DNA from: Escherichia coli
GTDB taxonomy: Bacteria; Pseudomonadota; Gammaproteobacteria; Enterobacterales; Enterobacteriaceae
Reading direction: 5' to 3' (one strand)
Assembly (NCBI RefSeq): GCF_003334355.1
Contig: NZ_QOWP01000005.1
Length of the DNA stretch: 64,000 bases
Shown here: positions 242 to 22,095 of the stretch, in pieces
Numbering within the stretch: position 1 is the first letter of the stretch
How the letters are laid out: each line of letters opens with the position of its first letter
Made by a program: the position numbers and the translations under genes
The notes under the pieces: model-generated
The model's input: the letters and a program-made list of their open reading frames with translations, nothing else
What the model was told of the DNA's origin: nothing
Databases searched by the model: none

Positions 242-422
<181 letters not shown>

Positions 423-5688: not shown

Positions 5689-5847
5689 GAGTCCCTCCCG
5701 TCAGGAGGCGTTAGTCTGGGGTTAATCGAATGTTGGTGCAAGTTGAAAAATAAGAATATTCGAGCCTGCTTCCCGATGTCTGTAACGCCAGTTCACAAGC
5801 ACTAAAAAACTGAGATCCGCGACGCATGTTGCAAAAATAATGCGTAA

Positions 5848-6738
5848 TTATGCCGTTACGCTTGCCAAACGTTCCTGCACAATGGCGATGAAATCGCGTA
5901 ATGCCGGCTTCATCTCCCCTTTCTTCCACGCCATCAGTAAAGCAATGGAAGGCACATTTCCGGCAATGGGACGAAAAACAACCTGCCCGGTATTAAAATT
6001 ATTCATATAACCGGGTATCAAAGTGACGCCCAGCCCCATGCCCACCAGATTCATGGTCACCAGAATATTCGTTGCCACCTGGACGATATTTGGCTGGCTG
6101 TTTTCTTGCGCAAACCACGCTTTAACGATCGGCGCAAGCGAACCGGAATACGCCGGATCGGTACTGACGAAATTCACGCCATCCAGTTGCGCGGCGGTGA
6201 TCTCTTTTTCATGTGCTAAAGGGTGATCAACCGGTAACACCACCACTAATGGTTCGTCAAAAAGCTCCAGATAATCAATCTCCGGGCTATAAACAGGATG
6301 GCGCATTAAGCCGACGTCGAGTTCACCACGGCGAATTTTTTCCTCCTGTTGCGTGGTGATTAAACTCACCAGCTCAATCAAGGTGTCTGGCTGTCTGAGA
6401 CGAAACATCGGTAATACTTTTGGCAATAAATTCACTTCCGCCGATGGCACAAAGCCAATGGTTAATTGTCTGTCTTCCTGAACAATTTTCCGCGCCCGTA
6501 ATTTGGCATTTTCCGCTTGTTCGAGGATTGCCAGCGCGTCCTGGAGAAAACATTCTCCCGCCGCCGTCAACGCGACTTTGCGCTTATCCCTCACCAGTAA
6601 CGGAACACCGACACAGTTTTCAAGATCGCGGATCTGGCTGCTTAACGAAGGCTGTGAGGTATGCAGTTTTTCCGCCGCACGGGTAAAGTTCAGTGCCTGC
6701 GCCACTGCGACGAAATAGCGTAAATGCCGTAGTTCCAT
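5848..6738 (-). CDS. hcaR: LysR-type transcriptional activator HcaR
   Basis: ORF 5848-6831; start placed at MELRHLRYFVAVAQ (LysR helix-turn-helix N-terminus) for a 296-aa product; divergent from hcaE. Confidence 0.88.
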   Translation of the reverse strand: MELRHLRYFVAVAQALNFTRAAEKLHTSQPSLSSQIRDLENCVGVPLLVRDKRKVALTAAGECFLQDALAILEQAENAKLRARKIVQEDRQLTIGFVPSAEVNLLPKVLPMFRLRQPDTLIELVSLITTQQEEKIRRGELDVGLMRHPVYSPEIDYLELFDEPLVVVLPVDHPLAHEKEITAAQLDGVNFVSTDPAYSGSLAPIVKAWFAQENSQPNIVQVATNILVTMNLVGMGLGVTLIPGYMNNFNTGQVVFRPIAGNVPSIALLMAWKKGEMKPALRDFIAIVQERLASVTA

Positions 6739-6837
6739 CACCTTCTCCTTGTTATCGAAAAAACGTCTCAGCTGGTAGAAATTAACTATTTCACATATTA
6801 GCAACCAACCAGCAACATCCTTATGGCACAAAAATAG

Positions 6838-8749
<1,912 letters not shown>

Positions 8750-8750
<1 letters not shown>

Positions 8751-9070
8751 TGAATCGAATTTATGCGTGTCCCGTTGCGGATGTGCCGGAGGGTGAGGCT
8801 CTCCGGATCGATACCTCGCCCGTCATCGCCCTGTTCAACGTTGGCGGCGAGTTTTATGCCATTAACGATCGTTGCAGCCATGGTAATGCGTCAATGTCAG
8901 AAGGGTATCTGGAAGATGACGCCACGGTGGAGTGCCCGCTACACGCCGCCAGTTTTTGCCTGAAAACGGGGAAAGCGTTATGCCTGCCCGCCACCGATCC
9001 GCTCACCACTTATCCAGTACACGTTGAAGGTGGTGACATTTTCATCGACTTACCGGAGGCGCAGCCATGA
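8750..9070 (+). CDS. hcaC: 3-phenylpropionate dioxygenase ferredoxin subunit (Rieske ferredoxin)
   Basis: 106-aa ORF with CSHG...CPLH motif; overlaps the hcaF stop. Confidence 0.9.
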
Positions 9071-9879
9071 GCGATCTGCATAACGAGTCCATTTTTATTA
9101 CCGGCGGCGGATCGGGATTAGGGCTGGCGCTGGTCGAGCGATTTATCGAAGAAGGCGCGCAGGTTGCCACGCTGGAACTGTCGGCGGCAAAAGTCGCCAG
9201 TCTGCGTCAGCGATTTGGCGAACATATTCTGGCGGTGGAAGGTAACGTGACCTGTTATGCCGATTATCAACGCGCGGTCGATCAGATCCTGACTCGTTCC
9301 GGCAAGCTGGATTGTTTTATCGGCAATGCAGGCATCTGGGATCACAATGCCTCACTGGTTAATACTCCCGCAGAGACGCTCGAAACCGGCTTCCACGAGC
9401 TGTTTAACGTCAACGTACTCGGTTACCTGCTGGGCGCAAAAGCCTGCGCTCCGGCGTTAATCGCCAGTGAAGGCAGCATGATTTTCACACTGTCAAATGC
9501 CGCCTGGTATCCTGGCGGCGGTGGCCCGCTGTACACCGCCAGTAAACATGCCGCAACCGGACTTATTCGCCAACTGGCTTATGAACTGGCACCGAAAGTG
9601 CGGGTGAATGGCGTCGGCCCGTGTGGTATGGCCAGCGACCTGCGCGGCCCACAGGCGCTCGGGCAAAGTGAAACCTCGATAATGCAGTCTCTGACGCCGG
9701 AGAAAATTGCCGCCATTTTACCGCTGCAATTTTTCCCGCAACCGGCGGATTTTACGGGGCCGTATGTGATGTTGGCATCGCGGCGCAATAATCGCGCATT
9801 AAGCGGTGTGATGATCAACGCTGATGCGGGTTTAGCGATTCGCGGCATTCGCCACGTAGCGGCTGGGCTGGATCTTTAA
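9067..9879 (+). CDS. hcaB: cis-dihydrodiol dehydrogenase (short-chain dehydrogenase)
   Basis: 270-aa ORF with [11 protein letters not shown]-binding motif; overlaps the hcaC stop. Confidence 0.9.
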
Positions 9880-11091
<1,212 letters not shown>

Positions 11092-11187
11092 CCAGGATAA
11101 TTAGCGAATATCTCAATGCCTGGGGCGTGGCGAGGTGCAAGAGTGTGTATTACGTTTAAATCACATTATCTTGCAAAGGGATTGGTT

Positions 11188-11610
11188 ATGAACACACTAC
11201 GTTATTTTGATTTTGGAGCTGCCCGCCCCGTTTTGTTATTAATTGCCCGTATCGCCGTGGTCTTAATTTTCATTATTTTTGGTTTTCCCAAAATGATGGG
11301 CTTTGACGGTACGGTCCAATATATGGCCTCGTTGGGCGCGCCAATGCCGATGCTGGCAGCGATTATTGCGGTAGTTATGGAAGTGCCCGCCGCGATATTA
11401 ATCGTGCTTGGCTTTTTCACCCGTCCGCTGGCGGTGCTGTTTATTTTCTACACGCTGGGTACGGCGGTGATTGGTCACCATTACTGGGATATGACCGGCG
11501 ATGCGGTTGGGCCAAATATGATTAATTTCTGGAAGAATGTCAGTATCGCTGGCGCGTTCTTGCTATTGGCAATTACCGGGCCGGGGGCAATTTCTCTCGA
11601 TCGGCGTTAG
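11188..11610 (+). CDS. yphA: DoxX-family inner membrane protein YphA (ORF track begins at an upstream ATG, 11116)
   Basis: Hydrophobic ORF; start placed at MNTLRYFDF for a 140-aa product. Confidence 0.75.
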
Positions 11611-11616
11611 GAAAGA

Positions 11617-11650
11617 TGCCGGATGCGGCGTGAACGCCTTATCCGGCATT
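11617..11650. repeat. REP palindromic unit between yphA and yphB
   Basis: gatgccggatgcggcgtgaacgccttatccggcatt, same family as the REP units at 242-422. Confidence 0.8.
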
Positions 11651-11657
11651 TAATAAA

Positions 11658-12530
11658 TTACAGCCACTCTACCCGCAACGACATCTCTGAAGTTGTTGAT
11701 TCCCCTGGTGCTAGCGCAATGAGATCACCCCCTTCCGGGCGATGATGATCATCCGGCGCATGGCTCATCGGTTCCAGACAGAAGAAATCAAACGCATATC
11801 CTTTATCAAACGCAGGGTCGGAAACAAAGATGAAATAACACGGTGCAGGTGGCGTCGTTTCCATGATGATGGCATAACCTTCCTGCGGCTGCTCGATGCG
11901 GGCCTGACCATTCCATCCGGCAAAACCATTGTTCACCCACTGGCGCGGCAACGGCGCGGGCTGGTTAAAATCCAGTTCCTGCGGTAGCTGCTCGCAAAAC
12001 TCACCCGCCAGCCACTGCTCCCGCTCCAGCCAGTAACCGCTCGCCTGTGCCTGAATCCGCGTTTGCGGCGACAACGGAAAATAAGGATGCCAGCCGGTAC
12101 CAAATGGCAGCGTCTCTGCCCCTTGATTGGTGACAGAGAGCGTCACCGTCAGCGTATCCGCCGTTAAATGAAACGCCTGACTTACCCGATAGTGATAGAC
12201 ACCGCTGCGATGTTCATACACCAGACACAAACTATCATCGCTGTGCGAGACACATTGCCACTCGCCCAGCCAGCCATCGCCGTGTAGATAGTGCGCATCC
12301 CACTCAACATTCGGTTGCAGTTGATACTCACGCCCCTGCCAGACAAAACGATTGCCGCTCACCCGGTTTGCAAATGGCACCAGCGGAAAACATGAGGCAT
12401 CGGTTGCCACACCGCTTTTTTTACCAGGACGTAAGAGCGGCGTCGTATCGCGCCAGAAGCCTTCGATTACGCCGCCCTGGTCAGAAACGTCCAGCTTTAG
12501 CGACCCGTGGGATAAGGTATAGATGGTCAT
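11658..12530 (-). CDS. yphB: Aldose 1-epimerase family protein YphB
   Basis: 290-aa ORF MTIYTLSHGSLKLDVSDQGGVIEGFWRD... Confidence 0.85.
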   Translation of the reverse strand: MTIYTLSHGSLKLDVSDQGGVIEGFWRDTTPLLRPGKKSGVATDASCFPLVPFANRVSGNRFVWQGREYQLQPNVEWDAHYLHGDGWLGEWQCVSHSDDSLCLVYEHRSGVYHYRVSQAFHLTADTLTVTLSVTNQGAETLPFGTGWHPYFPLSPQTRIQAQASGYWLEREQWLAGEFCEQLPQELDFNQPAPLPRQWVNNGFAGWNGQARIEQPQEGYAIIMETTPPAPCYFIFVSDPAFDKGYAFDFFCLEPMSHAPDDHHRPEGGDLIALAPGESTTSEMSLRVEWL

Positions 12531-12541
12531 CCGCTAACTCC

Positions 12542-13603
12542 TTAATCCGGGAAGTTAATCACAACTTTCCCGCATTTGCCGCTCGCCATCAGCGCATAGG
12601 CATCACCTGCCTGTTCCAGCGAGAAGCGATGGGTAATGGCGTTACGCGGCCACAGCTTCCAGTCCGTCAGATCATGGGCGCATTTTTCCATATGGAACAG
12701 ACTGGTCACCCAGGAGCCGATAATCCGCCGTTGATGGTGCATCAGATCGGCGCTGACCTCGAATTCCACTTCTCCGGTTTCACCAATGTAAACCACCCGT
12801 CCCCAGTCAGCGGTGGATTGCAGTGCCAGCAAGCGACCTGCGGCATTACCGGAACAATCGAGCGCAACATCCGCGCCACCGTGGGTGAGTTCGGCGATAA
12901 TCTGCGGCAGACCTTCGGTGGTTGCTAAATAGCCGTGATCCATCACCCCTAACTGTTTTGCCATCGCCAGACGTTCCGGCAGCATATCAACGCCGATGAT
13001 CCGTTTTGCACCGCGACCTTTCGCCAGCATCATCGCCATCATGCCGACCGGCCCCAGACCGACCACCAGCACGTTATCGCTGCCGGAAACTTCGCCGCGC
13101 AAAATCCCTTCATAGGCCGTGCCAACGCCGCAACTGATAAACGCACCATCTTCGTAGCTCAGCGCATCCGGCAGGAGGATCAGATCTTTTTCTTCCGCCA
13201 GCAGATATTCGGCATGACCGCCGTCACGCTGCCAGCCGTAAGCCGCTTTTCCTTTGCCAGTACAAGAGATAGGAAAGCCGCGGCGGCAGTTCGGGCAAAA
13301 ACCACAGCCAGAAATGTGATACACCAGCACGCGGTCGCCCTCTTTAAAATGGCGGCAGCCTTGCCCCATCGCCACAATCTGCCCGCACGGTTCATGACCG
13401 TTGATAAATCCTTGGTATAACGGTTTGTCGGGTGCCGCTGCCGTAGCGCGGTGCTGGTGGTAGATATAGTGGACATCGCTTCCGCAAATTCCGGAAGATT
13501 TCATTTTGATCAGTACCTGGTTAATCCCTGGTGTCGGCACCGCAACTTCCCGTAGATCGACGGTCGAATTTCCTGGTAAATAAGCTGCCAGCATCGTTTT
13601 CAT
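12542..13603 (-). CDS. yphC: Zinc-dependent alcohol/sugar dehydrogenase YphC
   Basis: ORF 12542-13636; MDR-family motifs GHEPCG and GLGPVG; start placed at MKTMLAAYLPG for a 353-aa product. Confidence 0.85.
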   Translation of the reverse strand: MKTMLAAYLPGNSTVDLREVAVPTPGINQVLIKMKSSGICGSDVHYIYHQHRATAAAPDKPLYQGFINGHEPCGQIVAMGQGCRHFKEGDRVLVYHISGCGFCPNCRRGFPISCTGKGKAAYGWQRDGGHAEYLLAEEKDLILLPDALSYEDGAFISCGVGTAYEGILRGEVSGSDNVLVVGLGPVGMMAMMLAKGRGAKRIIGVDMLPERLAMAKQLGVMDHGYLATTEGLPQIIAELTHGGADVALDCSGNAAGRLLALQSTADWGRVVYIGETGEVEFEVSADLMHHQRRIIGSWVTSLFHMEKCAHDLTDWKLWPRNAITHRFSLEQAGDAYALMASGKCGKVVINFPD

Positions 13604-13668
13604 AAATCCCTCATTAACAATACGATTAATTTTCATCCCTGCCGCACCCGCGCCAGGGGCGTTAAGGT

Positions 13669-14667
13669 TTAGCGTTTCGCTTTACTGCTTCGCTGGGTCA
13701 GCAAGATATTCGCCAGCACCGCCACCACGATGATGACGCCGCGTACCACCTGCTGGAAAAAGGAGTTAATACCGAGCAGCACCAGACCGTTACCGATTAG
13801 CGTAATCACCAGCACACCAAGCAATGTACCGAACAGGGAACCGCGACCGCCGGAAAGTGCCGTACCGCCGACCACGACCGCGGCGATGACGTCAAACTCC
13901 AGACCGTTTGCGGCACCTGCGTTACCAGAACCGAGGCGCGCCGCCAACAAAATGCCGGTCACCGCCGCTAATAATCCCGAAAGGGTAAAGATAAGAATGC
14001 GCACCCGACGAACGTTGATGCCGCACAACTGCGCCGCCGTAGCATTACCGCCAACGGCAAAAACCGAGCGCCCGAAGGCGGTTTTGCGGCTGATGAACAC
14101 AAACAGCGCAAACAACACAATCATGATCAGCGCGGATACCGGCACACCGAGAAATTGTCCGCCCAGCCAGTCCAGCACCTCGTTTTCGTCAATCGGCACT
14201 GGCAGGGCGTTCGTCATAAACAGCCCCATTCAGCGCAGGGCGCTCCACAGCCCCAGTGTGGCAACGAAACTTGGTACGTTAAACACGCCGCGCAGCACCC
14301 CGGCGAGCGTTCCCATCAGCGCGCCTAACAGCAACACCAGCAGACAAGCAATCGCCAACGGAACTTCAAATTGCAGCAAAAATGCCAGGCACACCGAGAC
14401 AAAAGCCACCATCGGCCCAACGCTGACATCAATCTCACCGGAGATAATAATCAGCGTCATCGCCCAGGCGGCAATCCCAATGGTGGCGGCATCGCGCAGC
14501 ACGTTCATCTGGTTATTCAATGAGATAAAGCCAGGCGCGTTCAGGGAGAAGACCAGATAAAGAATGGCAATCACCACCAGCAAACCGATCTCATTAATAT
14601 GGCGACTGACAAATTGTTTGAGCGAGACGCTCTTGCCCTGCGGCAATGGTAATGACGAAGCAGACAT
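13669..14667 (-). pseudogene. yphD: ABC transporter permease YphD, interrupted by an in-frame TGA at 14230-14232 followed directly by ATG
   Basis: Two abutting same-frame ORFs (14230-14667, 145 aa; 13669-14229, 186 aa); minus strand reads ...CTG CGC TGA ATG GGG CTG...; 145+1+186 = 332 codons, the length I recall for intact YphD. Confidence 0.7.
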
Positions 14668-14691
14668 CTTCAGGTTCCTCGGTAAAATTCA

Positions 14692-16203
14692 TCAGTGCAC
14701 AGACAGAATGGCGGACATCAGCTCATCCACATTGACCGGCGAGTGAAACTCCTGCGAGAACGTGCCGTGCTGTAATAACAGGATGCGGTCACACACCAGC
14801 GGCAACTCCTCCACTTCACTGGAGATAAACACCACGCTTTTTCCTTCGGCAGCCAGCTCACGGACAATACGGTAAATCTGCTGTTTGGCTTCGATATCGA
14901 CGCCGCGCGTTGGCTCGTCGAGCAACAAAATCTGGCTGGCGGCATAGACCCAACGACCGATCACTACTTTTTGCTGATTGCCGCCAGAAAGCGTGCCGAT
15001 GGGCGTTTCGCTACTGGCGGCCTTGACCGTCATCCGCTGCATCACTTCTTCGGTCAGGCGGCGGATGGTGGACCATTGCAGCACTCCGTTGGCGCTGATT
15101 TTTTGCCGATTGGTCAGCACTGTATTTTCGTCAACGCCCAACCAGGGAATGATCCCCGCTTCTTTGCGGTTTTCTGGCGTATAGCCAATGCCGCGTTTCA
15201 GCATGTCGCCGTAATCGGGGCGCGTGATTTTCTCGCCGTTGATAACAATTTCGCCCTGTTCATACTCCTCCAGCCCAACAATCGCCTTCAGCAATTCACT
15301 GCGCCCTGCCCCCAGCAGACCAGCAATGCCGAGCACTTCGCCACGACGTAGCGTAAAACTGATATCCTCCAGCTTGGGCTTATGGCGTAACGCACGGACT
15401 TCCAGTACGGCCTGATCCACAATTTCCTGAGGGGCAACCGGCGCAATATCAACGTGATCGCGCCCGAGCATCAGCGACACAATATGATGCGTGGAGGTGT
15501 TTTCGAGCATCACATCGCCCGCCACCTGACCATCGCGCATAACGGTGGCACAGGAGGCAATGCGGCGAATTTCTTCCATCCGGTGGCTGACATAAATTAC
15601 CGCCACGCCCAGTGCCGACATCTTTTTCACCGCGCTGATCACCAGTTCAACTTCCGCACTGGCAAGCGAACTGGTAGGTTCATCAAGAATGACCACGCGC
15701 GGCTCGCCCTTCATCACCCGCGCAATTTCCACCAGCTGCTTTTGCGCCGGGCTTAGTGTTGAAACAAGTTGTTCAGGACTAACGTCAACGCCCAACGCCT
15801 GTAAGCAACGTTGGGCATCCTGCGCCATTTGCAGGTAATCAATCATGCCGTTGCGGCGGGGCCACTGACCGAGGCAGAAGTTTTCCGCCACCGTCAGCCC
15901 TTCCACCAGACTTAACTCCTGATAAACCGCGCGTACCCCCAGTTCAGCGGCACGGCGAGTCAGCGTAGCTTCGTCGCCTTCCAGTCGCGTCTCGCCAATC
16001 CAGATATCACCGCTATCCGGACGTTCGCTACCGGTAAGCATTCGAATGAGGGTCGATTTGCCCGCGCCGTTTTTGCCTAACAGCGCACGAACTTCGCCTT
16101 TATTGAGCGTGAAGTTAACGTTATCCAACGCAACGACGCCGGGATAACGCTTATTTCCTGCCACCACTTTTGCTACCGGGACTGCCTCTGTTGCCGTGAA
16201 CAT
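14692..16203 (-). CDS. yphE: Sugar ABC transporter ATP-binding protein YphE (tandem ATPase domains)
   Basis: 503-aa ORF with two Walker A motifs (GKNGAGKST and a second cassette) and an LSGGNQQK signature. Confidence 0.88.
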   Translation of the reverse strand: MFTATEAVPVAKVVAGNKRYPGVVALDNVNFTLNKGEVRALLGKNGAGKSTLIRMLTGSERPDSGDIWIGETRLEGDEATLTRRAAELGVRAVYQELSLVEGLTVAENFCLGQWPRRNGMIDYLQMAQDAQRCLQALGVDVSPEQLVSTLSPAQKQLVEIARVMKGEPRVVILDEPTSSLASAEVELVISAVKKMSALGVAVIYVSHRMEEIRRIASCATVMRDGQVAGDVMLENTSTHHIVSLMLGRDHVDIAPVAPQEIVDQAVLEVRALRHKPKLEDISFTLRRGEVLGIAGLLGAGRSELLKAIVGLEEYEQGEIVINGEKITRPDYGDMLKRGIGYTPENRKEAGIIPWLGVDENTVLTNRQKISANGVLQWSTIRRLTEEVMQRMTVKAASSETPIGTLSGGNQQKVVIGRWVYAASQILLLDEPTRGVDIEAKQQIYRIVRELAAEGKSVVFISSEVEELPLVCDRILLLQHGTFSQEFHSPVNVDELMSAILSVH

Positions 16204-16225
16204 AGGGACCTCTGCGAATCAGCGA

Positions 16226-17209
16226 TTAGGGCAGACCATCAACGTGCGTTGCCAGCCACTGTTTACCGTCTTCCGTTTTGGTATAGAGATCGATAGGCAC
16301 CTGAATCACTTTTTCACCGTCGGCTTGTTTATTGATAACCTTCAATGTTTGCGCGAAAACAGCATTGCCCATTTTCTTACCGGAAATATCCACTACCGCT
16401 TTCAGCACCTGATTGTTTTCCAGCTCCTGAGCAATTTCGGTTGTCATATCCGAACCGAAAACAGCAATTTTTCCGGCCTGATTTTGATTACGTACCGCTT
16501 TTACCGCGCCGAGTGTCGCACCGCCCGATTCCCCCATAATGGCGTTGAGATCCGGCGTGGAGATAATCAGTTTTTCACCAACGGAAATCGCTTTATCTAA
16601 AACAGTCCCTTCCTGATTAGCGACAATTTGCGCGCCGGGAACGCGGGCTTTTAATACTTCTTCAAACCCTTTACGTCGTTGCACACAAACTTCAAAGGCT
16701 TCGCAATTGATGACGGCAATTTTCGGCTGGTCAATTTTATTGGCAATAAAATAATCGGCGGCAGCGTTACCCAGTTTTTTACCAAATTCCAGTGGATCGC
16801 CGACCAGATACGCCGAGACATATTTATCGACACCCTTTTGATTAATACAGGTGTTGTAGCAAATCACCGGAATACCCGCTTCACTGGCGCGACGAACGGT
16901 ACGGCTACTGCCATTTTCAGACACTGCCGATAAAATAATGGCATCGACATTACGCGCCACGAGGGTATCAACAAAGGTACTTTCTTTCGAAATATCACCC
17001 TGGGCGTTAGTTTCAATTAACTGTACCTGTACTGAAGAATCTTTTGCCGCATCCTGAACGCCCTGACGCACTCCAGCGTAATATCCCTGGGTATCAAGGT
17101 ATATTGCACCAATGGTCATTTCTTTATCCGCAGCCCTGGCAAATAGTGCGCTACCTAATAGCGTAGCCATTAATAATAGATTACGGGTTGTTCTCATTTT
17201 TTTAGGCAT
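16226..17209 (-). CDS. yphF: Periplasmic sugar-binding protein YphF of ABC transporter
   Basis: 327-aa ORF with N-terminal signal peptide MPKKMRTTRNLLLMATLLGSALFARA. Confidence 0.85.
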   Translation of the reverse strand: MPKKMRTTRNLLLMATLLGSALFARAADKEMTIGAIYLDTQGYYAGVRQGVQDAAKDSSVQVQLIETNAQGDISKESTFVDTLVARNVDAIILSAVSENGSSRTVRRASEAGIPVICYNTCINQKGVDKYVSAYLVGDPLEFGKKLGNAAADYFIANKIDQPKIAVINCEAFEVCVQRRKGFEEVLKARVPGAQIVANQEGTVLDKAISVGEKLIISTPDLNAIMGESGGATLGAVKAVRNQNQAGKIAVFGSDMTTEIAQELENNQVLKAVVDISGKKMGNAVFAQTLKVINKQADGEKVIQVPIDLYTKTEDGKQWLATHVDGLP

Positions 17210-17305
17210 AGTACCTCCTGTAGGGTTTTTATTAACAACGGCTTATTCTAATTATTTTGTGATGAGCGGCAGCGCATGCCGCTCAAATATTACAGTTAAT
17301 AGGGT

Positions 17306-20300
17306 TTAGTGAACGTAGTTAAAAATAAAAGGCATCACGGTGGTGAATAATGCCGCTTTCGGCCAGGCCGGATTAATCGCCGTCAATTCAGCGCGAGCAG
17401 ATTCATATTGCGCAACCTCCCCGAGTCCCGCGGACGCCAGCATCGCCACCATCAGGCATTTTTCTTTATGCTGCTGTTGTAAATCGCCATACAGCGACAA
17501 CAGGTCAGGTTGTGAAACAGCAAAGAAATCCGCCTCAATACTGGTTTTCGCCATCTCTTGCGCCCACTGTTTCATTTCACTAAACAGTTGCTGTGCGGTT
17601 TGCTGTTCACCCAGCAGTCGCAGCGCCATTCCTTGCCAGAAGAGATAATCAACCGGCTGATCGTTGTAATAACTGTGGATGTTAATGGTGCGATCGCCGG
17701 TCGCCGCCAGACGTAAACAACGCATCGCTTCAGTTTCATCGCCCTGCGCGTTGGCGCATATCGCCTGCCAGAACCAGATGTCGTTATCAGTTTGCCCCGG
17801 TAAACGGCCTTCGCTTAAATTCTCCGGATAATGCAGCGCGGCATGAAGCAGTTCGCTGGCCTGCTGCGGCTCTCTGGCATCAAGATGCTGCCAGGCGCGT
17901 AATAACTGGTTGAGGATAAACTGACTGGTGACCTTCCCTTCCCCGCCTTCCCACGGGTGGAATTTACGCGTGGCGAGAATGTCCGCCGCTTTGTCTGCCT
18001 GACCCGTGAGATGCCACAAATTGAGCAGTTCTGCGGTCATGTCGTCGCGTTTCAGCGCAATTTCCTGATTATTTTCCAGACGCGCCAGTCGTTTCTCCGG
18101 TGTGGCTCCACTTAACTTATCAAGCAAATCCCGTTCGAAAAGCAGACGTGCATCCTGCGGCGCAAGCTGATAAGCATTATCAAGATAACGCGCGGCCAGC
18201 TCATAATCGTGTTGCTTATTCCACGCATGGATCGCTAACCCGCGCCAGCCGTCGGCAAACTCCGGCGACATCTCTACGCAACGTTGCCATAAGGCAATGG
18301 CTTTGTTGTAGCTACGTTTGTTATAGTAGAAGCAGGCCAGTAAATGGCGAGCAAACCAGCACTCTTCAATACTCTCCAGCGCCGCCACTTCTTCCAGCGT
18401 ATTCGGGAAACGGACAAACTGCGGGAAGACATCAATGGCTTTTGCGACCAGTTCGCCACGTTCGGCTTTCGGCAGCAAGCTGGCTTGCAGGTAAAGCGGC
18501 AGCGTGCGCTGGCAGTCCAGTGCGTTCAGCATCTCTGCCGCCAGGGTGGGCATTCCCCAGTTAATCAGTTGCCCGGCGGTCATCAGAGCGTTAACGTCGC
18601 GTCCCTGACACAGACCGCGCCACTGCGCGAGGGCTGATTCGCTACGACCATCGAACCAGTTCAGCCACCACAGAGTGGCGTTCAGCGGATAATCGCGCAG
18701 CAGTTTCTCGCGCTGCAAACGCGCGTTGTCCTGACGACCACTTAACACCAGCAGCAGGTTATGCAGGCAAAGCACTTCCTGATTGGTTGGGCAGGCGCGA
18801 AGACTTTGTTGGCAAAAATCCAGACCCGCATCGAAGTTACCATTACGCGCAGCCAGTCGTGCCAGGCCATAATAGCCACCGGCTTTGCTGTTGCCGCTCC
18901 AGACCGCCCGCCAGAAATCCTCTTCGGCTTGTTGATATTGTCCCTGACGTTCGTAAGCACTGGCGCGAATCAAACTCGCCTGTCCGCACTGCGGATTTTT
19001 GTTCAGCGCATGTGCGCGTTTCAGAGCCTGAGTGGCATACGCCACCGCTTGCGGGAAATCGGCACGGTTATATTCCAGCATCGCCAGCGCCAGGTTACAG
19101 CGGTAATCCAGCGGATCCAGCGCCACGCCGCGTAGGTAGTAATCGAACGGTGAACGGCTGGCGTGATGATATTGCTCCAGATGCTGACCGATAAACCAGG
19201 CTTCATCTGTACTGGTAATGTCTTGTGCTGCCAGTGGCGCTTTGGCGACGTCCGGCAACGGCAACTCTTGCGGCTGATGTTCCTGATAACTCAGTACAAT
19301 ATTGCCGTCGGCATCGGAGAGCTCAATGGTCAGCCTTTCAGGATTGATACCGTGCAACACGCCCTGGATGGCGGTCGCAGGCATCAGTGCCACGGCATCA
19401 TCAAGTAACGCGTTGCATTTGCCGATTTCGCGGATCGCCAGGCGGTATCCGTTCAACGGAGAGATGGCATACAGCCCCCACTCAATCCCCCGCTCACTAC
19501 GCTGGAGTTTTATCACCGCATCGCGGGAGGCATTTTGCACCATGCCCAAAGAATGATAAGGCAGGAAATACTGCTCAAAACGCTTCTCTTCGTAAGCATC
19601 AAGCCAGGTAAAATCAGGCTGGTTATCGGCAAAAATACCGGTCATCAGTTCGATATACGGGCCGTTATTGTCGGTCAGACTCTTATCCCACGCCTGGCCA
19701 AATTCACTGTGTCCCCAGCTCCACTGCTTTTTACCTGGCGCAATATGGTGGTTGGCAACGTGTAGCAAACCACCATCTTCATCGTGACACCACGCGCCAA
19801 CAAAATCGTACTGTGATTTTTCAGCCATATATGAGGTTGGAACGGGCACATTTTTATAGCGAGAAATGTCCACTCCAGCGGAGTAGTCCACTTTGTAGTA
19901 AGTGCCGGTGGCGATGGGGAAAGCGGAGACGGCCCGTTTGCCGTGATCAAACACCGCAGTCACATCCGGCGGGAAAACGCTCTGATGCCCTTCCCCCCCT
20001 TTCACTGCCGGGTTGGCCCACCACAAGAAATGACGCGGCGTGGCGTTGCCGTTATAGACGCGGCTGGCGATTTCCAGCGCCGCCCGGTCAGGGCGCAGGG
20101 TGAAACCTGTCATCACCTGTAAACCATGCATCGGCTCCGTTTCGCCGACCCACACCGTCTGTGCGCCGTCTTCATGGGCTTCGAGGGTGAAATCAACGGG
20201 CATAAAGGTGGTCGGGCGATGGTGTTGCGGCCAGTTAAACTCAATCCCGCCAGAGATCCACGGTCCCAGCAGCCCCACCAGCGCAGGTTTAATGACTTCA

Positions 20301-20587
20301 TTGTGATAGACAAAATCGCGCTGTTTCACTTTATCCCATGCGCGATGCACCCGACCGCCCAGTTCCGGCAGGATCATCACTTTGATGTAGTCGTTTTCCA
20401 GCCACACCGCCTGCCAGGATTTCAGGGTTTTCTGTTCACTCAGCGTATCGGTCACGCCGTAGGGATAAACCGCGCCGGACGATCCCTGATAAACGCGATT
20501 TTCCAGGAACATGGGATGTATATCCTGCGGCCCGGTTTCATAGGTCGGGATCTCAACGCGCTCTTGCCACACTTTTACTGGAGTCAT
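17306..20587 (-). CDS. yphG: Large uncharacterised protein YphG (TPR-like repeats; ORF track extends 31 codons upstream to 20680)
   Basis: ORF 17306-20680; start placed at MTPVKVWQERV for a 1093-aa product. Confidence 0.8.
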   Translation of the reverse strand: MTPVKVWQERVEIPTYETGPQDIHPMFLENRVYQGSSGAVYPYGVTDTLSEQKTLKSWQAVWLENDYIKVMILPELGGRVHRAWDKVKQRDFVYHNEVIKPALVGLLGPWISGGIEFNWPQHHRPTTFMPVDFTLEAHEDGAQTVWVGETEPMHGLQVMTGFTLRPDRAALEIASRVYNGNATPRHFLWWANPAVKGGEGHQSVFPPDVTAVFDHGKRAVSAFPIATGTYYKVDYSAGVDISRYKNVPVPTSYMAEKSQYDFVGAWCHDEDGGLLHVANHHIAPGKKQWSWGHSEFGQAWDKSLTDNNGPYIELMTGIFADNQPDFTWLDAYEEKRFEQYFLPYHSLGMVQNASRDAVIKLQRSERGIEWGLYAISPLNGYRLAIREIGKCNALLDDAVALMPATAIQGVLHGINPERLTIELSDADGNIVLSYQEHQPQELPLPDVAKAPLAAQDITSTDEAWFIGQHLEQYHHASRSPFDYYLRGVALDPLDYRCNLALAMLEYNRADFPQAVAYATQALKRAHALNKNPQCGQASLIRASAYERQGQYQQAEEDFWRAVWSGNSKAGGYYGLARLAARNGNFDAGLDFCQQSLRACPTNQEVLCLHNLLLVLSGRQDNARLQREKLLRDYPLNATLWWLNWFDGRSESALAQWRGLCQGRDVNALMTAGQLINWGMPTLAAEMLNALDCQRTLPLYLQASLLPKAERGELVAKAIDVFPQFVRFPNTLEEVAALESIEECWFARHLLACFYYNKRSYNKAIALWQRCVEMSPEFADGWRGLAIHAWNKQHDYELAARYLDNAYQLAPQDARLLFERDLLDKLSGATPEKRLARLENNQEIALKRDDMTAELLNLWHLTGQADKAADILATRKFHPWEGGEGKVTSQFILNQLLRAWQHLDAREPQQASELLHAALHYPENLSEGRLPGQTDNDIWFWQAICANAQGDETEAMRCLRLAATGDRTINIHSYYNDQPVDYLFWQGMALRLLGEQQTAQQLFSEMKQWAQEMAKTSIEADFFAVSQPDLLSLYGDLQQQHKEKCLMVAMLASAGLGEVAQYESARAELTAINPAWPKAALFTTVMPFIFNYVH

Positions 20588-20704
20588 GGTGCCCTCAATA
20601 TTAACAAGACATACTGAATTAAAAGATTTGTGGCAGTGTATTGAACAATCTGGCAATGTTTTCGCGGAATAATCACGCAATTAACTAAACAAGGTTTAGT
20701 GAAG

Positions 20705-21898
20705 ATGAGAGCCTGCATTAACAACCAACAGATTCGCCACCATAACAAATGCGTGATTCTGGAACTGCTGTACCGGCAAAAGCGCGCCAATAAATCAACG
20801 CTGGCCCGGCTGGCGCAAATTTCGATTCCGGCAGTCAGTAATATTTTGCAGGAACTGGAAAGCGAAAAACGGGTGGTGAATATCGACGATGAAAGCCAGA
20901 CGCGCGGGCATAGTAGCGGTACATGGCTGATTGCGCCGGAAGGTGACTGGACGCTGTGTCTGAACGTGACGCCCACCAGTATTGAGTGTCAGGTTGCTAA
21001 TGCTTGTTTAAGTCCGAAAGGTGAATTTGAGTATTTACAGATTGATGCACCGACGCCGCAGGCGCTGCTGTCCGAAATCGAAAAATGCTGGCATCGCCAC
21101 CGTAAATTGTGGCCGGACCGCACCATCAATCTGGCGCTGGCAATCCACGGTCAGGTTGATCCGGTGACCGGCGTATCGCAAACCATGCCGCAAGCGCCGT
21201 GGACAACGCCGGTTGAGGTGAAGTATCTGCTGGAAGAGAAGCTGGGCATTCGGGTGATGGTCGATAATGACTGCGTGATGCTGGCGCTGGCGGAGAAATG
21301 GCAAAATAATTCGCAGGAACGGGATTTCTGCGTGATCAACGTTGATTACGGCATTGGCTCGTCGTTCGTGATTAACGAGCAAATTTATCGCGGCAGTTTG
21401 TATGGTAGCGGACAGATTGGTCACACCATCGTTAATCCGGATGGCGTCGTCTGCGACTGTGGACGTTACGGCTGCCTGGAAACCGTCGCCTCGTTAAGTG
21501 CATTAAAAAAACAGGCGCGGGTATGGCTAAAATCACAACCGGTTAATACTCAGCTTGATCCTGAAAAACTGACAACCGCGCAGTTAATCGCTGCCTGGCA
21601 GAGTGGAGAACCGTGGATCACCAGCTGGGTTGATCGCTCTGCCAATGCCATTGGTTTGAGTCTGTATAACTTCCTCAACATCCTCAATATTAATCAGATT
21701 TGGTTGTACGGTCGCAGTTGTGCCTTTGGTGAGAACTGGCTTAATACTATTATTCGCCAGACAGGATTTAACCCGTTCGACCGCGACGAAGGACCGAGCG
21801 TGAAAGCGACGCAAATTGGCTTTGGGCAATTAAGCCGCGCACAACAGGTGCTGGGAATTGGCTATTTGTATGTTGAGGCGCAGTTACGACAGATTTGA
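20705..21898 (+). CDS. yphH: ROK-family (NagC/XylR-like) transcriptional regulator YphH
   Basis: ORF 20699-21898; N-terminal helix-turn-helix and ROK sugar-kinase-like body with CDCGRYGCLE zinc motif. Confidence 0.85.
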   Translation: MRACINNQQIRHHNKCVILELLYRQKRANKSTLARLAQISIPAVSNILQELESEKRVVNIDDESQTRGHSSGTWLIAPEGDWTLCLNVTPTSIECQVANACLSPKGEFEYLQIDAPTPQALLSEIEKCWHRHRKLWPDRTINLALAIHGQVDPVTGVSQTMPQAPWTTPVEVKYLLEEKLGIRVMVDNDCVMLALAEKWQNNSQERDFCVINVDYGIGSSFVINEQIYRGSLYGSGQIGHTIVNPDGVVCDCGRYGCLETVASLSALKKQARVWLKSQPVNTQLDPEKLTTAQLIAAWQSGEPWITSWVDRSANAIGLSLYNFLNILNINQIWLYGRSCAFGENWLNTIIRQTGFNPFDRDEGPSVKATQIGFGQLSRAQQVLGIGYLYVEAQLRQI

Positions 21899-21915: not shown

Positions 21916-21937
21916 AAGGCTTCCCGAAGGAAGCCTT
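21916..21937. other. Stem-loop downstream of yphH (9-bp stem, cgaa loop); weak terminator candidate
   Basis: aaggcttcc cgaa ggaagcctt read from the sequence; no strong U-run on either strand. Confidence 0.35.
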
Positions 21938-21957
21938 GATGATCATAAACGAAAAAT

Positions 21958-22055
21958 TGCCTGATGCGCTACGCTTATCAGGCCTACACGGAGATTGCAA
22001 TATATTGAATTTGCAAGATTTTGTAGGCCTGAGAAGGTGTTCATGCCGCATCCAA
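21958..22055. repeat. BIME-type composite repeat (two palindromic units flanking a roughly 33-bp central motif)
   Basis: gcctgatgcgctacgcttatcaggcctac...gcaatatattgaatttgca...ttgtaggcc; near-identical copy at 52142-52244. Confidence 0.8.
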
Positions 22056-22095
22056 CATGAACAACGAGCACATTGTCAGCAAATCACCGTTTCGC

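Follow-up and report, generated by a model that had tools for sequence, protein, structure and literature searches.

Two intergenic repeats, one downstream of yphH and the other downstream of srmB, lie 30,184 nt apart in the 64-kb stretch of Escherichia coli DNA analysed here (the window). A preliminary description regarded them as near-identical composite repeats of the BIME type (bacterial interspersed mosaic element) and as potential partners in recombination. This raises the question of whether the two copies form a pair with a function of its own or are two of many copies of a dispersed family. Our answer, to which we assign a probability of about 0.93, is that both belong to the BIME-1 family (RIP, repetitive IHF-binding palindromic element, or RIB), that they were placed independently and inherited, and that they have no function as a pair.

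A repeat finder and pairwise alignment agree on a collinear direct pair of 136 nt (21947-22082 and 52131-52266), so that two repeats are indeed present where they had been reported, with the reported genes next to them: yphH(+)/glyA(-) for copy 1 and srmB(+)/yfiE(-) for copy 2. Ungapped identity amounts to 84% (114/136); the full units agree at 118/148 positions, the family alignment gives 0.77 (about 77%), and inside 21958-22055 the two copies match in register at 84/98. The similarity is therefore real, but “near-identical” overstates its degree. Likewise the intervals given before are at the right place but too short: the true units extend over ~21938-22086 and ~52120-52271, roughly 150 nt each, and have inverted-repeat ends. 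Agreement is uneven along the unit. The Y palindrome is identical (29/29) and the same as the consensus of 82 copies, the central linker matches at 29/37 positions, the Z palindrome at 27/33 (6 substitutions), the left flank at 10/12 and the right flank at 19/25. Both palindromic units and the central motif are thus common to the pair, as had been stated. The similarity is not limited to the generic REP palindrome, because a 20-nt core (TGCAATATATTGAATTTGCA) is exact in both linkers. Beyond the units the outer flanks of the two copies are unrelated to each other by alignment. Both strands of both copies fold better than shuffled sequences (z = -3.2 to -5.4), and in the predicted minimum-free-energy folds the Y side is paired with the Z1 side across the linker, giving one long hairpin. 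The stretch 21742-53360 is 99.4% identical to MG1655 (NC_000913.3), from which it differs over 31.6 kb by 179 substitutions and a single 18-nt gap. The feature table of the MG1655 record has no repeat_region feature at either site, which leaves the curated RIP numbering unmatched.

Table 1. Features of the two repeats and their immediate surroundings (positions in the window)
Feature	Position	Strand	Basis or remark
yphH stop codon	21896-21898	+	convergent with glyA; copy 1 lies between the two stops
Terminator hairpin GGCTTCC-CGAA-GGAAGCC plus TT	21918-21937	+	read from the sequence; directly left of copy 1
BIME-1 (RIP) copy 1, whole unit	21938-22086	+	filled-versus-empty alignment (O157, ST131, CE0032f) and 82-copy consensus
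Y-type palindromic unit (REP), copy 1, GCCTGATGCGCTACGCTTATCAGGCCTAC	21959-21987	+	comparison with copy 2 and family consensus
L linker, copy 1	21988-22024	+	exact core at 21996-22015
IHF-consensus match with one mismatch, copy 1 linker	21998-22010	-	
Z1-type palindromic unit, copy 1, decayed	22025-22057	+	comparison with copy 2
glyA stop codon	22096-22098	-	
srmB stop codon	52088-52090	+	convergent with yfiE; copy 2 lies between the two stops
Left copy of duplicated srmB terminator hairpin, AATGCCAGGTTTAAGCCTGGTATT	52095-52118	+	T-run absent after it
BIME-1 (RIP) copy 2, whole unit, 152 nt	52120-52271	+	flank-to-flank alignment, empty alleles
Y-type palindromic unit, copy 2	52143-52171	+	segment alignment with copy 1
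L linker, copy 2	52172-52208	+	exact core at 52180-52199
IHF-consensus match with one mismatch, copy 2 linker	52182-52194	-	
Z1-type palindromic unit, copy 2, intact, GGCCGGATAAGGCGTTCACGCCGCATCCGGCA	52209-52241	+	100% complementary to the REP at 11616-11647
Right copy of duplicated srmB hairpin, ATGCCGGGTTTAATCCCGACATT, plus T-run ATTTTTAT	52272-52302	+	hairpin at 52272-52294
yfiE stop codon	52299-52301	-	

BIME-1 is defined by one Y and one Z1 unit in inverted orientation, separated by a long conserved L linker with an IHF site (PMC3333891), and has been described as about 140 bp long and present or absent among isolates (PMC1187871). At each of the two sites we found a solitary unit of about 150 nt, located between the stops of two convergent genes. 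In both linkers the minus strand reads ATTCAATATATTG, a predicted IHF site with one mismatch from the consensus WATCAANNNNTTR. The classification as BIME-type repeats can therefore be narrowed to BIME-1, with Z1 (rather than Z2) assigned by its association with the L linker (PMC3333891) and not by comparison with reference Z1 and Z2 consensus sequences. Binding of IHF and gyrase, which had also been put forward, is reported for the family (PMC3333891) and would be predicted for the present copies; for IHF the source is Boccard & Prentki 1993 as cited in that article, and for gyrase a lower affinity is given for BIME-1 than for BIME-2 (PMC1475751).

The 82 aligned copies give a consensus of ~155 nt with inverted-repeat ends TGAGACTGATGACAAACGC ... 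CACTTTGTCAGCAATCTGA, in which the left end TGAGACTGATGACAAA and the reverse complement of the right end, TCAGATTGCTGACAAA, agree at 13/16 positions. The order Y, L, Z1 is kept in the other family members of this alignment as well. Copy 2 matches the two consensus ends at 13/17 and 14/19 positions and copy 1 at 10/17 and 13/19. Copy 1 is the more degraded of the two: its left end is truncated (G followed at the junction by ATGATCATAAACG in place of TG followed by AGACTGATGACAAACG) and its Z palindrome has decayed to GCCTGAGAAGGTG...CATCCAACA, compared with the consensus GCCGGATAAGGCG...CATCCGGCA, so that the outer stem is broken and the inner stem has changed from GCG/CGC to GTG/TGC. Unlike copy 1, its orthologues (L022) keep the intact Z1.

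All 5,426 complete E. coli genomes contain linker matches; copy numbers per genome, which are a lower bound given the E-value of a BLAST search in a 28-Gb database, reach a median of at least 7 and a maximum of at least 19. When one genome per bacterial species was scanned for exact matches of the 20-mer TGCAATWTATTGAATTTGCA, 86 stretches were obtained, nearly all from Escherichia and, more surprisingly, from Pseudocitrobacter, together with a few chance matches. The carriers within Escherichia are E. albertii, E. whittamii, Escherichia sp. E1V33, Escherichia sp. MOD1-EC7003 and divergent genomes named E. coli, and this exact-match scan gave nothing from Salmonella, Citrobacter or Klebsiella. 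Pseudocitrobacter faecalis, P. vendiensis and a Pseudocitrobacter MAG (L023-L039, L079-L082) contain many complete BIME-1 units with the exact linker core. Escherichia-type BIME-1 was also seen on tiny contigs assigned to Desulfosporosinus sp. OT (L019, 262 nt), Methylobacterium frigidaeris (L048, 261 nt), Alkalicoccobacillus (L069, 720 nt) and a Collinsella MAG (L068). Such copies on small contigs of unrelated organisms are most simply explained by contamination of the assemblies with E. coli DNA. In MOD1-EC7003 (L092 4790-5390, L091, L086) we observed tandem Y-L-Z1 arrays with a period of 115 nt, five linker cores being present in L092, so the L linker occurs also in multi-copy “atypical BIME” arrays and not solely in solitary BIME-1. 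The window itself holds further members of the REP superfamily: a BIME-2-type tandem repeat at 229-422, consisting of two 91-nt units that are 95% identical and overlapping an Rfam naRNA4 (CssrE) match (292-363, minus strand), and single REPs at 11605-11650 and 29449-29494.

Both sites are polymorphic within the species. Of the 5,426 E. coli genomes, 1,933 carry the element at yphH-glyA, empty alleles being 134 bp shorter, and 2,525 carry it at srmB-yfiE, with about 176 bp missing from the empty alleles. This presence or absence matches the published behaviour of BIME-1 (PMC1187871). The family, its IHF site and the polymorphism of these repeats are already known. One filled srmB-yfiE allele is itself interrupted: in E. 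coli SCU-313 (L008 1880-3320, corresponding to window position ~52226) the loop of Z1 holds IS1397, an element of the IS3 family, flanked by a 4-bp GTTC duplication. This is consistent with the specificity of IS1397 for BIMEs, which is already known according to an entry in the reference list of PMC3333891.

Could the central motif instead mark a small RNA gene read from the minus strand, rather than an element acting at the level of DNA? This is suggested by the Rfam family RF02751, ES036 (CssrF), which matches copy 2 with 49.9 bits at 52164-52206 (minus strand), above the gathering score of 37.6, and copy 1 more weakly with 33.9 bits at 21980-22022 (minus strand), below that score. In Shigella, cssrF has been detected by Northern blot as a band of ~290 nt and maps between dacB and yhbZ (PMC3071730). 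In both copies, however, what the 43-nt ES036 model covers is the L linker together with the GTAG end, and this linker belongs to a repeat present in dozens of copies. ES036 effectively models the BIME-1 linker, and a match therefore shows homology to the repeat and not a gene. A promoter scan found no promoter-like site near either copy. Since both copies are located inside the 3’ UTRs of convergent genes, any RNA would most simply be a 3’-UTR fragment. We therefore consider a small RNA gene improbable, and prefer to read the linker as part of BIME-1.

The preliminary description further proposed that the two copies are potential substrates for recombination or inversion. Taken further, they would act as a pair that drives the intervening 30 kb to be deleted, duplicated or inverted. 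A similarity of 84% over 136 nt on one chromosome and the general association of BIMEs with rearrangements (PMC1187871, PMC3184786) speak for such a role, but the arrangement of the copies does not. Because they are in direct orientation, an exchange would give a deletion or a tandem duplication, and a simple inversion is ruled out. The minimal efficient processing segment for RecA is about 23-27 bp. The longest perfect identity between the copies, 30 nt direct and 10 nt inverted, is near or below this length. The interval contains glyA, hmp, glnB, glrRK, glmY, purL, mltF, tadA, pgpC, acpS, pdxJ, recO, era, rnc, lepB, lepA, rseABC, rpoE, nadB and yfiC. Among these tadA, acpS, era, lepB and rpoE are reportedly essential in K-12 (Keio collection), so that a deletion would be lethal. 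Three synthetic junctions, corresponding to the deletion, the tandem duplication and the inversion, were queried against the 5,426 complete genomes. The best 40 pieces per record were kept, with which a full-length match of 700 nt would show, and each junction was found in 0/5,426 genomes at ≥80% coverage. Rearrangements between the two copies were thus absent from the complete assemblies, and the suggested risk is not borne out. A functional pair is very improbable in our estimation, and family membership accounts for the similarity.

A recent local duplication or gene conversion could in principle also have produced two copies with a common central motif, and the exact 20-nt core and the identical Y palindrome would fit. 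These are, however, the parts that are invariant across the family consensus. The identity of the pair corresponds to the 61st percentile of all pairs among the 82 copies and is therefore average, and the flanks of the two copies are unrelated. Moreover, closer relatives exist elsewhere. For both copies the nearest relatives come from other Escherichia species; they are orthologous by synteny and occupy the same junction. For copy 1 these are L022, L090 and L012 (0.92-0.88), its orthologues being found in E. albertii, MOD1-EC7003 and strain SCPM-O-B-8794, and for copy 2 it is L074 from Escherichia sp. E1V33 (0.955; 95.5%). Even to non-orthologous copies in other species, copy 2 shows an identity of 0.87-0.88, above its identity to copy 1. 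Since the closest relatives are orthologues in other species and not the partner copy, each copy is old and was placed independently; duplication or conversion within this interval is even less probable than a role in recombination. By sequence comparison, copies 1 and 2 are average family members and not a special pair. Chance or low-complexity resemblance, for which nothing but the AT-rich core could be cited, can be dismissed, given the 136-nt collinear alignment, the family-wide conservation and the 19-mer GCAATATATTGAATTTGCA, which occurs exactly twice in the window, even when 3 mismatches are allowed, against 0.03 occurrences expected from shuffles.

Both elements fall within 3’ untranslated regions, each between two convergent genes, and immediately adjoin terminator hairpins. 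At srmB-yfiE, empty alleles contain one hairpin, AATGCCGGGTTTAAGCCCGGCATT, followed by the T-run, which is one canonical terminator and was called as the srmB terminator by a terminator scan in an empty allele. In the filled allele the hairpin is present on either side of the element, and the T-run to the right of copy 2 overlaps the stop codon of yfiE. The two hairpin copies of Escherichia sp. E1V33 form a perfect repeat of 24 nt. The scan called nothing in the filled alleles; it also missed the yphH hairpin of the empty allele, where an extension of the stem absorbs the T-run. Two further junctions show the same relation, with exactly one hairpin in the empty and two in the filled allele, as for srmB-yfiE: agp-yccJ, filled in E. 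whittamii and E. coli 1919D3 and empty in E. coli VTB96777v and O157, and metE-ysgA, filled in E. albertii and empty in E. coli SC418 and O104:H4. For L065 (argG and secG-tRNA-Leu flanks) no collinear E. coli counterpart was found for a comparison of filled and empty alleles.

The 60-nt left and right flanks of 80 BIME-1 copies were compared by local alignment, with flanks taken from different copies as control. The 99th percentile of the control scores was 21, and 25 copies scored above this value. Leaving aside six copies that belong to tandem arrays, we found a direct duplication abutting the element in 19 of 74 solitary copies; it is 11-29 nt long (median 21), and in all 19 it represents a GC-rich stem-loop specific to the locus (L013, L029, L035, L037, L039, L050, L056, L060, L062, L065, L071, L072, L074, L080 and others). 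An A-tract is located to the left in 11 and a T-tract to the right in 9, with both in 3 and neither in 2. Lying outside the duplication, these tracts identify the duplicated object as the stem-loop of an intrinsic terminator, without fixed polarity; a fixed polarity of insertion with respect to the terminator T-tract was rejected on the same counts. The junction consensus reads T (82%) G (84%) followed across the left junction by AGACTGATGACA, and CAATCTGA up to the right junction. A hairpin of -8 kcal/mol or better abuts 67% of the left and 54% of the right junctions, in comparison to 14% of control windows. Frequent bracketing of BIME-1 by two copies of the terminator hairpin belonging to the locus is well supported. 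This signature is not mentioned in the BIME, REPIN and RAYT literature surveyed, a survey outside which the primary papers of the 1990s fall, and it may be previously undescribed.

Copy 1 is atypical in this respect: it has the left hairpin and no second hairpin copy. In empty alleles the yphH hairpin is followed by a run of six T (TTTTTT, ...GGAAGCCTTTTTTCAACAGATTAACC), which the element cuts to TT. The same empty alleles (L001-L003, ~573-590) contain TTTTCAACAGATTA after the hairpin, to be compared with window positions 21936-21951. Its similarity to TTTGTCAACAATCTGA, the right inverted-repeat end of the element (11-12 of 16 positions), might reflect a remnant, a preference for such targets or coincidence. 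As a speculation, a secondary deletion between TTTTCAACAGATTA and the similar right end might explain the single hairpin of copy 1. Two other variants were observed around this junction. The empty allele of E. coli CE0032f (L003 ~541-560) carries a 9-nt tandem duplication, CGCGATAAC, directly after the yphH stop codon. In Escherichia sp. MOD1-EC7003 (L090 5895-6040) a segment of ~16 kb corresponding to window positions 5807-21871, which by K-12 gene order we take to be the hca and yph gene clusters, is absent, and the junction is situated 27 nt inside the 3’ end of yphH, immediately beside the glyA-side BIME-1.

One possible explanation of the bracketing, which we put forward tentatively and still regard as doubtful, is that BIME-1 is a mobile element targeting structure: it would insert at the foot of a terminator hairpin and duplicate the whole hairpin, the stem-loop setting the length of the duplication. 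Canonical junctions would then read hairpin-TG followed by AGACTGATGAC on the left and CAATCTGA followed by the hairpin on the right, A- and T-tracts would stay outside a duplication of the observed length, and strand transfer might be staggered, taking place at both feet of a hairpin or cruciform that has been extruded. If true, this would provide a testable signature for the spread of REPs and BIMEs, a question open since the 1980s. Insertion would also split a terminator, leaving a stem without U-tract followed by a complete terminator ~150 nt later, which is the pattern shown by the srmB copy. The hairpin bracketing would explain why the elements are located at the 3’ ends of transcription units and, if indeed undescribed, it would give a direct indication of how REP-derived elements insert.

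Returning to the two copies as BIME-1 members, we summarise as follows. BIME-1 is a non-coding Escherichia repeat of ~152 bp, MITE-like or REPIN-like, made up of an inverted-repeat end (TG AGACTGATGACAAACGC), Y, the ~37-nt L linker with its IHF site, an inverted Z1 and the opposite end (CACTTTGTCAGCAATCTGA). Each copy was placed independently where two convergent genes meet, beside a terminator hairpin, and has been inherited at its site since before the Escherichia species split, with many E. coli lineages carrying the empty allele. From the family literature, the L linker is expected to be bound and bent by IHF, and the REPs may bind gyrase weakly as well as Pol I. Transcribed in the 3’ UTRs of glyA, yphH, srmB and yfiE, the palindromes would form RNA stem-loops, which, by analogy with other family members, might slow 3’ exonucleolytic decay, stabilise the upstream mRNA or attenuate read-through. 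According to Plamann and Stauffer, the REP-containing 3’ region of glyA reportedly affects glyA mRNA stability. The spread of the elements may be attributable to the single-copy REP-associated tyrosine transposase TnpA-REP/RAYT (yafM; PMC3333891; PMC2817692), whose gene lies outside the window. The E. coli enzyme cleaves y, z1 and z2 REPs in vitro (PMC3333891), and the C^T dinucleotide described as essential in the same article is present at both unit ends (AGAC^TGA and AATC^TGA), which is compatible with cleavage without being evidence of it. Copies 1 and 2 are related solely as family members and do not act as a pair. The repeat family to which both belong has been known since the early 1990s, and recognising two of its members again is of little consequence; the useful outcome is a negative and clarifying one, namely that the pair is ordinary, that inversion is not to be expected and that the ES036 match is a match to the repeat.

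Several known systems resemble the unit described here. Bacterial MITEs such as Correia and ERIC/IRU elements share with it a length of ~150 bp, terminal inverted repeats, flanking direct repeats, an intergenic location and co-transcription, and Correia elements also have an IHF site in the core. Whereas MITEs produce target duplications of a short, fixed length (2-10 bp), the segment duplicated here has 11-29 nt and corresponds to the locus-specific hairpin, and copy 1 has no duplication; the terminal inverted repeats of a MITE are thus present but not its fixed short target-site duplication. To our knowledge there is no cognate DDE transposase for BIME-1. According to a review, REPs “do not display MITE signatures” (PMC3184786). 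With REPINs the unit shares two inverted REPs plus spacer, folding into a long hairpin, vertical inheritance and tens of copies. For REPINs, however, neither terminal inverted repeats outside the REPs nor target duplications are reported (PMC3337134, PMC3116915), in contrast to the ~16-nt inverted ends beyond the REPs and the long flanking duplications at many loci found here. BIME-2, for example the repeat at 229-422 in the window, is likewise assembled from REP palindromes of this superfamily, the Y unit among them, but is distinguished by Z2 units, short S, l and r linkers, tandem arrays, the lack of an IHF linker and a higher gyrase affinity (PMC1475751). With BIME-1/RIP the agreement extends to one Y and an inverted Z1, an L linker with IHF consensus, solitary occurrence strictly outside genes at the 3’ ends of transcription units, a length of about 140-150 bp, presence or absence among E. 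coli isolates and use as a target by IS1397. Nothing essential separates the two repeats from this family, the yphH copy being a degraded member with a truncated left end and a decayed Z1 stem.
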